Below, piece by piece: positions 11,203-12,440 of a DNA stretch of 64,000 nucleotides. This stretch comes from a plasmid. The translations under genes and the position numbers were made by a program. Within the stretch, counting starts at the first letter, position 1; each line of letters starts with the position of its first letter. Under the pieces are notes generated by a model. The model was not told the DNA's origin, did no database searches, and saw nothing but the letters and a program-made list of their open reading frames with translations. The stretch is taken from assembly GCF_056712565.1 (NCBI RefSeq), contig NZ_JBWXXM010000004.1. The stretch is one strand, 5' to 3'.

Positions 11203-11283
11203 ACAACAGGTAAGGGCGCTGGTGTGATTAACCAGATGAACGAGAAGGGGCCATCTGTTGGTCAGCGTCCTTTCCTGTTGCGT
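11203..11283 (+). repeat. hairpin repeat, copy 1 of ACAACAGGTAAGGG family
   Basis: Arms ACAACAGGTAAGGGCGCTG / CAGCGTCCTTTCCTGTTG followed by T-rich tract. Confidence 0.5.
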
Positions 11284-11485
11284 TTTCTTTTCAGCGTAAC
11301 AGCGGTGCTTAACAGCACTTTGGGTACAGTTCCACGAATTTACGGGTATATCCCGTCATGCTGAAGGCGCTAATCACGCTGGAAGCCAGGGTTGTGCATC
11401 CCCTGTTACCGAATTGCAGCCAGGGCGCGGTGCGCCGAAAAGCATACGGAGGTGGAAGCCCTCGCCGGAGACGTACCCGGCAAGT

Positions 11486-11560
11486 GATGGTGTAGCTCAG
11501 CGGTAGAGCAGTTGGCTGTTAACCAACTGGTCGGTGGTTCGAATCCATCCACCATCGCCA
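11486..11560 (+). tRNA. tRNA-Asn (anticodon GTT)
   Basis: Cloverleaf: acceptor GATGGTG/CACCATC, anticodon loop CTGTTAA, T-loop GGTTCGAATCC, 3-prime CCA. Confidence 0.85.
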
Positions 11561-11562
11561 AT

Positions 11563-11638
11563 GCCGGTTTAGCTCAGTTGGTAGAGCGCCTGCCTTGTAA
11601 GCAGGATGTCAGCGGTTCGAGTCCGTTAACCGGCACCA
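11563..11638 (+). tRNA. tRNA-Thr (anticodon TGT)
   Basis: Acceptor GCCGGTT/AACCGGC, anticodon loop CTTGTAA, T-loop GGTTCGAGTCC, 3-prime CCA. Confidence 0.85.
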
Positions 11639-11640
11639 AC

Positions 11641-12440
11641 ACAACAGGTAAGGGTATTTTGCGACGTCGGAGATCGCCGTGCTTGGCAGAGGGTTCGAAT
11701 CCCTACGAAGTACCCTTACCGTTGTGATGAATGCGCAGGCTGATGCGCGAAAGACATTGCAGCTATTGCGGAAAAGAGCTGTTCGGCGGGGCAATTAAAC
11801 GCCCGTGAGAGTCTGAAATAACCGCAAGCCGGAGATCAGCACCGGTCATCACAACACAACAGGTAAGGGCATTCTCCCTTATGGGGCTTGGCTTAAATGC
11901 ATCGAGTGCTCTTACCGTTGTGATGAAGTGCAGCTCTTTGAAGCAACCAGAAGATAAGCATCTGGCTTCACAACATAAACCGCAGGAACGACCAATAAAC
12001 GGTAGTCCGTATGGAGAACACCCCGTTGAGGAAGAGGCCTGGCCGGAACCGTAACCGGCACTACAACGTTGAGAACACTGGCGTAACGGGGTCATATCCC
12101 AATCTACGAATAAATGTTGCGTTGCAGCGTGACAACCAGTGTTCTCAACATTGTGGTGAATGCACAGGCTGATGTGCCGCAACTACAGTAGTGCGCGCTT
12201 TGCGGGGCTTGCTACAACCCTGTGTCGGAGTTCAGCACCGACCATCACAGTTTGATTCTCTGGCATGAGCATAACGCTGAAATAAGTCCAGTCTGGTGCG
12301 GCCCGATCACCCGCCGTTAGCTCCACGAAACGGAGCACGTAACAGGTAAGAGCATTCTCCTGTAACGGGTTCATATCCCAATCTACAGGTCCACCAGGAA
12401 TGCTCTTTCCGTTGCGGTGAATGCGGCTAAGCGCACGCGG
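11641..12440 (+). repeat. four further copies of the hairpin repeat family (about 11641-11750, 11856-11935, 12063-12177, 12339-12440)
   Basis: Each copy has 15-19 bp imperfect inverted arms around a loop with tRNA-T-loop-like GGTTCGAATCCC / GGTTCATATCCC, then a short GTGAATGC.CAGGCTGATG.GC hairpin; no convincing ORF in the 800-bp interval. Confidence 0.5.

Follow-up and report, generated by a model that had tools for sequence, protein, structure and literature searches.

We analysed a 64,000-nucleotide stretch of plasmid DNA (contig NZ_JBWXXM010000004.1 of the RefSeq assembly GCF_056712565.1; the whole stretch is hereafter called the window), which in the region considered here corresponds to a P1-like phage/plasmid. 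Between the end of dmt (position 10813) and the TerB-like gene tciA (12566-13000), in the leader of the ban operon, it carries five large hairpins, H1 to H5, which are plus-strand RNA structures of a widespread and so far unannotated phage family. Judged from their sequences, the five copies belong to a single family as regards the stem, and each has a different tip, hereafter called the cargo. We propose, with a probability of roughly 0.55, that these hairpins are ribonuclease III (RNase III)-type processing modules of the C1-controlled ban-operon RNA and that their tips are functional RNAs acting as mimics.

A first-pass annotation, made from the letters alone, had placed five diverged copies of a large hairpin element here, and five hairpins are indeed found at this place both by fold z-scores and by an independent covariance model. 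The folds have z-scores of -4.9 to -7.0, with none of 200 dinucleotide shuffles equally stable, and for every hairpin the plus-strand fold is more stable than the minus-strand fold. The covariance model (R1), built from seven lambdoid-phage copies with the P1 sequence excluded, gives H5, H4, H1, H2 and H3, in this order, as its top plus-strand hits in the window. Reverse-strand matches of the same hairpins interleave with these hits, and the best match elsewhere in the window reaches 14.7 bits (E 0.07). The five hairpins are:

11201-11285, plus strand: H1, basal stem GCACAACAGGTAAGGGCGCT / AGCGTCCTTTCCTGTTGCGT, fold of -39.9 kcal/mol (z -4.9), R1 score 21.2 bits (E 7.5e-4, arms alone matched); the cargo is the long hairpin continued, without a tRNA-like core.

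11639-11729, plus strand: H2, basal stem of at least 16 bp with a bulged A, fold z -5.2, R1 score 19.1 bits; it begins 1-3 nt past the encoded CCA of tRNA-Thr.

11854-11925, plus strand: H3, basal stem and small two-hairpin cargo, R1 score 18.6 bits; the cargo is also found in a lambdoid late-region leader (contig L207).

12060-12159, plus strand: H4, 22-bp basal stem of other sequence, z -6.8, R1 score 38.9 bits (E 3e-9); cargo hairpin A is CGUA-AC-GGG-GUCAUAU-CCC-AAUC-UACG, with the core at 12086-12104, and is followed by hairpin B.

12337-12419, plus strand: H5, basal stem, z -7.0, R1 score 43.9 bits (E 9e-11); cargo hairpin A is CCUGUA-AC-GGG-UUCAUAU-CCC-AAUC-UACAGG, with the core at 12365-12383.

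The basal stems measure 16-23 bp (about 20 bp, with one conserved bulge or mismatch) and run on into the cargo stems. The arm start proposed for all copies, ACAACAGGTAAG, is exact at 11203, 11641 and 11856 (H1, H2 and H3); it becomes GTAACAGGTAAG, with two mismatches, in H5, and the H4 arms keep the architecture with a different sequence. The proposed cores are present in three of the five copies (GGTTCGAATCCC in H2, GGTTCATATCCC in H5 and GGGGTCATATCCC in H4) and absent from H1 and H3. The notion of five copies of a single 80-115-nt element has to be given up, since the basal stem alone is common and the interiors are unrelated cargos. One copy does lie 5' of tRNA-Asn and four lie 3' of tRNA-Thr, as described in the first pass; this tie to tRNA genes holds for P1 and is a peculiarity of P1, most related loci having no tRNA gene nearby.

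Covariation was counted on an alignment of 33 distinct sequences (A4), structure-registered and model-guided, in which unalignable interiors were masked with N. Standard pairs make up 93.9% of the cells of A4, versus 39-51% when the partners are slid by 1-3 columns, and double changes are found in 20 of the 30 pairs; none of 500 shuffles reaches the observed values. In the basal helix, 15 of 20 pairs are double-changed and 95.5% of the cells are paired, and in the helix around the core five of seven pairs are double-changed. The compensatory changes of which the first pass had seen a hint are thus strongly borne out, and two of its candidate explanations, processed structured small RNAs (sRNAs) and processing signals for a long ban-operon transcript, would both fit the evidence, covariation included. 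A model alignment (A3), contaminated by reverse-strand matches of the near-palindromic stems, was left out of the counts. A4 also replaced a MAFFT and RNAalifold analysis of untrimmed members, in which the arms were mis-registered and hairpin A alone was recovered. The same behaviour is seen in IMG/VR viral contigs, where a scan with the core pattern, which fixes the loop sequence, retrieved at least 120 stretches whose stems differ in sequence with the pairing kept.

Three observations bear on the strand. A U.G pair at columns 19/62 of A4 is retained in 26 sequences, and further G.U pairs recur, on the plus strand only. In 52 of 59 distinct hairpins, the RNA of the plus strand is the more stable one, with a mean difference of 4.5 kcal/mol, and at 128 of 150 loci the strand of the hairpin is the one used by most of the neighbouring coding sequences. 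Together, the plus-strand G.U pairs, the plus-strand stability and the co-orientation argue against a palindrome acting at the DNA level. At the gathering score, the three tRNAs are the sole Rfam 15 matches in the window, and Rfam 15 has no match over the elements in contigs L003, L004 and L001 or over the non-enterobacterial copies. Scans at relaxed E-values returned weak sub-threshold matches only (microRNA (miRNA) precursors, STnc100 and tmRNA_permuted), none of which explains the hairpins.

The constant stem and its exchangeable cargos are best seen in a scan for P1-type arm ends alone, whose hits, mostly chance matches, were filtered for an extended 3' arm. In the 36 distinct hairpins that passed the filter, the basal stem is near-invariant (RCAYAACAGGTAAGAGCATT ... 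AGTGCTCTTTCCGTTGTGGT) and the bulged A is kept. Their interiors were sorted by eye into about 19 unrelated cargo classes, of which a few are T-arm-like (the H2 type, GUAGRGUUCGACUCYCURC and GGUUUGAGUCC) and one is the H5 type. The motif UCAUAG is retained in two diverged cargos, those of Escherichia coli K-12 and of contig L220. The P1 reference lacks 11739-11904 (166 nt), and with it H3, through a crossover in the 3' arms of H2 and H3 (L001 2410-2438), and contig L233 carries an H4/H5 hybrid whose junction falls inside the anticodon-like core, so that the hairpin arms act as recombination points.

The cores of H4 (GGG-GUCAUAU-CCC) and H5 (GGG-UUCAUAU-CCC) consist of three consecutive G-C pairs and a 7-nt loop with U33, CAU and A37, and thus display the features of an initiator tRNA (three G-C pairs, 7-nt loop, U33, CAU and a purine at position 37). 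They had been taken for T-loop-like; they are not T-loops, because the position of A58 is occupied by U, and they fit an anticodon loop. In lambdoid relatives the core reads GGG-CUCAUAA-CCC, and CGGGCTCATAACCC is identical at 14 of 14 nt to the K-12 metY tRNA-fMet (metY contains GCTCGTCGGGCTCATAACCCGAAG); the P1 versions differ from tRNA-fMet at positions 32 and 38 only. This resemblance suggests a partial mimicry of the initiator anticodon arm by H4 and H5. The pair beyond the AC/AAUC internal loop covaries between G-C and A-U, and the stem around the core covaries as well (CCGGA/UCCGG, CUGAAUA/UAUUCAG, CCUGUA/UACAGG, CGUA/UACG, CUGUCUG/CGGGCAG). A rescan with fixed flanks and an unconstrained 13-nt core yielded 138 copies; per site, minor alleles account for 0.5% in the core, compared with 9% in the 5' arm and 25% where hairpin B begins. 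The anticodon-like core is under purifying selection, being 18 to 50 times more conserved than its flanks. The same core is found on other scaffolds in contigs L046, L009 and L264, the latter a 9-bp stem in an Acidobacteriaceae metagenome-assembled genome (MAG). A literature search on initiator-tRNA anticodon-arm mimics in phages retrieved none.

Two other origins of the core were considered and rejected. The CAU tRNA of P1 itself does not qualify as the model of the mimic, its arm GGCGA-CUCAUAA-UCGCA being of the tRNA-Ile2 type. P1 replicates as a plasmid prophage; an attP core derived from a tRNA gene, in which the identity should extend from the anticodon loop to the gene's 3' end, was discarded, the identity with metY ending after CCC (CCCAATCC vs CCCGAAGATCG) and no integrase gene being adjacent in the loci read.

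By sequence, the T-loop reading would stand for H2 alone. The H2 cargo may be represented as three hairpins on the long stem: one D-arm-like (GCGA-CGUCGGAGA-UCGC, its loop containing GG), one of 3 bp, and a T-arm AGGG-UUCGAAU-CCCU, the sequence of which follows the T-loop consensus (U54-U55-C56-R57-A58-N-N with G53-C61 closure); H1 and H3 offer no candidate. This T-arm is broken in the minimum free energy (MFE) fold of the window copy and kept in that of the P1 reference copy. The H2 cargo recurs with changes in contigs L186, L011 and L001, and one side of the 3-bp hairpin becomes a G.U pair in L186. The degenerate tRNA genes invoked in the first pass found no support: ARAGORN calls the three true tRNAs only and none within the hairpins, and between 10800 and 12600 the Rfam model for tRNA has no hit to a hairpin at E<=10. 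A weak Rfam hit to YrlA was rejected, as it sits on the true tRNAs.

The region had also been described as having no credible open reading frame (ORF), and this agrees with the state of the two minus-strand genes annotated in the P1 reference, plp and upl, which correspond to the window ORFs 11763-12182 and 12183-12374. The plp gene starts with TTG, and its C-terminus is read from the reverse complement of the H2 T-arm and tRNA-Thr (...DSNP...); it has in-frame stops in contigs L011 and L234, and in the window its last third has been swapped by recombination. For upl, the N-terminal 42 residues are absent and the last 21 are left in five P1-like contigs. In the plasmid gene table, most of the P1-like plasmids listed have no gene under the match. 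Both plp ('putative lipoprotein') and upl are artefactual ORFs lying over structured RNA.

Each of H2 to H5 is followed by a further RNA-like unit (S2 to S5), each closed by the long-range stem GUGAUGA...UCAUCAC, and a segment resembling the precursor of the sRNA DicF lies upstream of H1:

10876-11020, plus strand: DicF-precursor-like segment, ending in the region's only strong plus-strand intrinsic terminator (10994-11020).

11726-11853, plus strand: S2, sRNA-like unit after H2, with closing stem GUGAUGA...UCAUCAC, first hairpin GCGCAGGCUGAUGCGC and last hairpin CCGGAGAUCAGCACCGG; repeat families D1 and D2 are represented in it.

11922-11975, plus strand: S3, short S unit after H3, with repeat families D1 and D2.

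12155-12250, plus strand: S4, S unit after H4, also containing D1 and D2; in its first hairpin, GCACAGGCUGAUGUGC, the change from S2 is compensatory.

12413-12528, plus strand: S5, STnc100-like unit after H5 (Rfam RF02076, 39.8 bits, E 1e-6).

The first hairpin of S2 is the second small hairpin, GTGAATGC.CAGGCTGATG.GC, that had been assigned to the repeated element. It follows H2 and H4, where the two copies differ by a compensatory G-C to A-U change, and is degenerate after H3 and H5; instead of being part of the element, it opens an STnc100/PasD-like sRNA unit. The idea that CUGAUG...GAAA in this hairpin might be a hammerhead was rejected, there being no stem II. S2 is 98.5% identical to sequences of lambdoid and Stx phages and also occurs in the early-left leader of mEp460, and S3 is 93-95% identical to Klebsiella and Cronobacter plasmids of about 110 kb. 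S5 is 78% identical to the K-12 dicF-dicB spacer (L125 1657-1780), with compensatory changes in two helices. Taken alone, the MFE of S2 and of S4 is not significant. The S units are of the kind of the STnc100 (RF02076)/PasD prophage sRNAs and have the same prophage leader contexts, the hairpins being their neighbours (Zhu, Shabalina and Storz, bioRxiv 10.64898/2026.05.13.724894). S5 alone approaches the RF02076 gathering score (39.8 vs 47 bits), with a match confined to model positions 31-147; none of S2 to S4 is matched, and the hairpins lie outside the model.

A precedent for processing comes from the dicBF operon of the K-12 Qin prophage. It contains a homologous hairpin (L125 1373-1458, at about 1649172-1649257 of NC_000913), whose arms CCAUAACGCGAAAGCGCAUGG / CCGUGCGCUUCCGGUUGUGG can be aligned to those of P1; after this hairpin come homologs of window 10876-10970 and 12413-12528. 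The window segment 10876-11020, labelled 'dicF-like region' in P1, has 76% identity to L125 1463-1559, the 5' part of the 190-nt DicF precursor. The Rfam DicF model gives no match on 10876-11020, which indicates that this region resembles the precursor and not the 53-nt DicF. The 190-nt DicF species is described as RNase III-dependent in the passage of Ragunathan et al. (bioRxiv 10.1101/2023.04.14.536235) that cites Faubladier 1990. Given its length, the 5' end of this species would map near L125 1446-1451, within the 3' arm of the K-12 hairpin. On the evidence of the alignment, the dicBF RNase III site thus appears to be a member of the hairpin family: the likeness is one of homology and not mere analogy, since the arms and the flanking modules are shared with the window, and this site too is located in a polycistronic prophage leader, with an RNase III-dependent 5' end that would lie in the 3' arm. 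It differs in that one cleavage site, and no family, has been described there, and in its degenerate cargo, which has kept the loop UUCAUAG and lost the GGG/CCC pairs. With their continuation into the cargo, the basal stems of H1 to H5 attain the size expected of RNase III substrates (about two helical turns, at least 20 bp). Because of this length and of the RNase III-dependent end of the K-12 homolog, RNase III probably cleaves the basal stems.

The structure of the hairpins, their strand, their covariation, their homology within a phage family and the purifying selection on the core are direct observations, and we hypothesize on this basis how the RNA would work. Cutting of the constant basal stem of about 20 bp by RNase III would separate the neighbouring RNAs. 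At H2, cleavage would trim the trailer of tRNA-Thr and free this tRNA; cutting of the stems would further generate the 5' ends of the S-unit sRNAs and set each tip free as a small RNA. The H4 and H5 cargos would then display a copy of the anticodon arm of the initiator tRNA-fMet, and the H2 cargo a T-arm with a D-arm-like hairpin. Such cargos would most likely bind or divert a factor that normally recognises those parts of tRNAs; the 30S P site with IF3, or the methionyl-tRNA synthetase MetRS, are alternative candidate targets of the tips.

Several points weigh against this interpretation. The alignment A4 was registered by hand and with the model, which favours structure, and its sequences are related. 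About 15 of the 19 cargo classes resemble no part of a tRNA, and H4 and H5 lack a full 5-bp anticodon stem, the pairs 27-43 and 28-42 being replaced by the conserved AC/AAUC internal loop in all copies. In the first data set, the loop was invariant because the search pattern fixed it, and the free-core test covers one subfamily only. The K-12 hairpin is diverged, R1 giving it no score at E <=0.01, and its cleavage position is deduced from the length of the RNA, not from a mapped nucleotide. Expression and cleavage in P1 are extrapolated from the sequence and from K-12, and a literature search for P1 transcriptomics returned nothing relevant. Finally, the strong intrinsic terminator identified by the terminator scan (10994-11020) separates Pban from the hairpins, and beyond it no consensus sigma-70 promoter was found; transcription of the hairpins thus needs read-through or an unrecognised promoter.

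The most probable of the competing explanations regards the hairpins as RNase III or spacer signals only, comparable to the early sites of T7, with cargos that are neutral filler and an incidental resemblance to tRNA. It is consistent with the long, low-variation stems and hypervariable interiors, with the K-12 precedent for processing at a homologous hairpin and with the majority of cargos, which resemble nothing known, but neutral filler would not be expected to hold a 13-nt core 18 to 50 times more conserved than the 5' arm and hairpin B over 138 copies, to carry this core again on unrelated stems and other scaffolds, or to share 14 nt with tRNA-fMet, and we regard it as unlikely. The processing modules might also belong to a modular RNA display of temperate phages in enterobacteria, and possibly in other phyla, in which a conserved stem cut by RNase III presents exchangeable mimics of the translation apparatus (the fMet anticodon arm, the tRNA elbow and, beside these, the tag template of a transfer-messenger RNA, tmRNA). 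These could serve as decoys against host nucleases or factors (e.g., VapC-type PIN toxins, which cut tRNA-fMet at the edge of this loop) or interfere with initiation or ribosome rescue in the host. We mention this broader scheme tentatively and consider it doubtful.

The hairpins could alternatively be cis-acting regulators of the operon, e.g., processive antitermination RNAs like put of HK022 or elements controlling translation through the CAU loop. Their position, always in leaders of long phage operons and at many loci directly after a terminator, would suit such a role, as would the need to pass the terminator 10994-11020; however, a leader contains several copies with differing cargos, at no fixed distance from start codons, and there is no likeness to any Rfam cis-regulatory family, all of which makes cis-regulation improbable.

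Elements acting at the DNA level, either miniature inverted-repeat mobile elements (MITEs) or recombination sites that shuffle cassettes, would explain low-variation inverted arms around variable inserts, the deletion of 11739-11904 in the P1 reference and the H4/H5 hybrid of L233, as well as the mosaic nature of the region, which extends over 1051 plasmid records. They would not account for G.U pairs conserved on one strand, the greater plus-strand stability (52 of 59) or the co-orientation with transcription (128 of 150 loci). Moreover, no target-site duplications, expected of MITEs, are visible at the copies read, and P1, the lambdoid early region and the late region share no associated transposase or recombinase; we judge this explanation very improbable. 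The least probable explanation, decayed tRNA genes or fragments left functionless by recombination around the P1 tRNA cluster, can draw on the canonical T-arm sequence and D-arm-like hairpin of H2, the initiator-type arm of H4 and H5 and the adjoining tRNA genes, but it is contradicted by the ARAGORN and Rfam tRNA results, by the absence of a nearby tRNA gene at most related loci, by covarying stems and a core under purifying selection, and by fragments sitting always on the same long basal stem, which is foreign to tRNAs.

Several known systems resemble parts of the proposed processing modules. The RNase III sites of the T7 early region (R0.3 to R1.3) are repeated long hairpins that punctuate a polycistronic phage transcript. 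Both they and the P1 hairpins are repeated long-hairpin arrays, whereas the T7 sites separate messenger RNAs, have no conserved apical cargo and have no sequence relation to the P1 copies. In the metY-nusA-infB operon, an RNase III hairpin directly 3' of metY frees the tRNA, much as H2 might do for tRNA-Thr, where cleavage is a prediction. The thrS operator mimics the anticodon arm of tRNA-Thr and binds the threonyl-tRNA synthetase ThrRS; it has in common with the phage cargo, whose role as a mimic is hypothetical, a hairpin loop that copies an anticodon loop. This operator is, however, a single cis site beside a ribosome-binding site, whereas the phage mimic would imitate the initiator tRNA and be carried by a processing scaffold within arrays of noncoding RNA. 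None of the T7, metY, dicBF and thrS systems joins a conserved processing stem with exchangeable cargos. The clusters of animal primary miRNAs (pri-miRNAs) offer an analogy only: they are also hairpin arrays in one transcript with a basal cut by an enzyme of the RNase III family that frees a different small RNA from each hairpin, without homology, and the functional part in the phage would be the apical structured RNA, not a 22-nt strand. Rfam models of miRNA precursors match H1 and H4 weakly, far below threshold. In the literature searched, we did not find a description of the constant-stem/variable-cargo design, of the anticodon-arm cargo or of the P1 copies.

These results change the reading of about 1.3 kb of P1, a phage studied for decades: this portion is noncoding structured RNA, and the widely copied plp and upl annotations should go. 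The hairpins tie P1 to a very common RNA family of lambdoid prophages, unrecognised so far, and the family would explain at the sequence level why DicF biogenesis involves RNase III, as has long been known. Phage RNA may imitate the translation apparatus, as suggested by the strongly conserved copy of the initiator anticodon arm borne on a processing scaffold; to our knowledge, few bacterial examples of such mimicry exist. Should the display scheme be true, it would define a new class of phage RNA for counter-defence or host takeover, found in close to half of E. coli genomes. The stem-cargo design could also offer a ready-made scaffold for the expression of small RNAs in bacteria, provided that the cargos act as decoys or inhibitors.

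The family is abundant in enterobacteria. A 191-nt stretch of mEp460, which takes in the end of the DicF-like sRNA, then the hairpin element and some sequence after it, is present in 2492 of 5426 complete E. coli genomes (46%), in as many as five copies per genome, none of them annotated as RNA. True elements were found in about 10 genera of Enterobacterales: Escherichia, Pseudescherichia, Citrobacter, Pseudocitrobacter, Enterobacter, Kosakonia, Mixta, Pantoea, Phytobacter and Trabulsiella. They occupy three types of leaders, those of the early-left operon (mEp460, K-12), of the late operon between Q and the lysis genes (contigs L207, L265 and L323) and of the P1 ban operon. In mEp460, the leader downstream of the cI-like repressor gene contains a family-type hairpin, a unit 98.5% identical to window 11720-11856, a DicF-like sRNA with a terminator, and a second hairpin whose interior, CGACGGGCTCATAACCCAATCC, is near those of H4 and H5.

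A genome-wide scan for the core gave 85 matches against about 70 expected by chance, and most of those outside Enterobacterales lie inside conserved protein-coding genes. The core ACGGGCUCAUAACCCAAYC with fully complementary flanking stems was seen outside Enterobacterales in L264 (the Acidobacteriaceae MAG), L278/L282/L326 (Pedobacter-like), L294 (a Deltaproteobacteria MAG), L265 and L323, each case being provisional given the number of chance matches expected. In L264, a lysozyme-like ORF lies about 1.2 kb upstream of the core hairpin, and in L294 the core hairpin is upstream of a DnaB-like gene. The core hairpins of L265 and L323 lie between Q-like and lysis genes. No Rfam family matches the core hairpins of L264, L278/L282/L326, L294, L265 or L323. 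The lambdoid late region of L207 (8800-9560, minus strand), from the Q gene to the holin and lysozyme genes, holds the same modules in the order promoter and terminator, H3-type hairpin, tag-like mini-ORF, possible tRNA-like fold, and family hairpin with a T-arm-like cargo.

The other features of the locus are:

10804-10833, plus strand: C1 operator (Oban) and promoters P1ban/P2ban, from the P1 reference annotation moved via the alignment (L001 1501 = window 10800).

11486-11560, plus strand: tRNA-Asn(GUU), found by ARAGORN and Rfam, in the same orientation as the hairpins.

11563-11638, plus strand: tRNA-Thr(UGU), found by ARAGORN and Rfam, in the same orientation as the hairpins.

13275-13350, plus strand: tRNA with anticodon CAU, called tRNA-Met(CAU) by ARAGORN.

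The window region 10800-12600 is collinear with one P1 isolate at 96.9% identity, and the P1 reference aligns to it at about 99%, as two pieces. The C1 operator is an inverted repeat in the repeat search of the window. P1ban and P2ban, directly after dmt and reading toward the tRNAs, are the sole annotated promoters directed into the hairpin region. In the ban-operon leader, the order is promoter, DicF-precursor-like RNA, tRNA-Asn, tRNA-Thr, four STnc100/PasD-like units, tciABC, tRNA-Ile2 and ban. The anticodon arm of the tRNA at 13275-13350 is of the tRNA-Ile2 (ileX) type, in agreement with the P1 reference annotation.

A mini-ORF resembling a tmRNA tag is located between the terminator and H1 (11083-11115, plus strand; GCA AAC GAT GAT CTG ATG ATG GTA GCG GCC TAA), and would encode ANDDLMMVAA*. 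It has no in-frame start codon or Shine-Dalgarno sequence, and a conserved block lies upstream (11040-11082). Diverged phage contigs (L207, L229, L230, L215 and L232) have the peptide variants ANDDLMLMAA, ANDDVILMAA and ANDDVVLMAA, and the codon changes are synonymous (last Ala codons) or conservative. The Rfam two-piece tmRNA models tmRNA_permuted and beta_tmRNA give weak matches. As for a tmRNA or tRNA-like partner domain, ARAGORN finds no tmRNA in the window and no tRNA or tmRNA gene in L207; the tRNA-like fold of L207 (GGGUCUU ... CAGG-UUCGAUU-CCUG ... AGACCC) was rejected, being no more stable than shuffles (z -0.7). In the survey of the tmRNA Website, phage ssrA genes are recorded in mycobacteriophages and Bacillus phage G only, P1 and lambdoid phages not being listed.

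Finally, small conserved hairpins lie directly 5' of H4 (12028-12058, plus strand, GGCCGGAACCGUAACCGGC) and of H5 (12310-12336, plus strand, GCUCCACGAAACGGAGC), and a hairpin of the GCUCCACGAAACGGAGC type is also found 5' of a family hairpin in the lambdoid contig L207 (about 9100-9125, minus strand).

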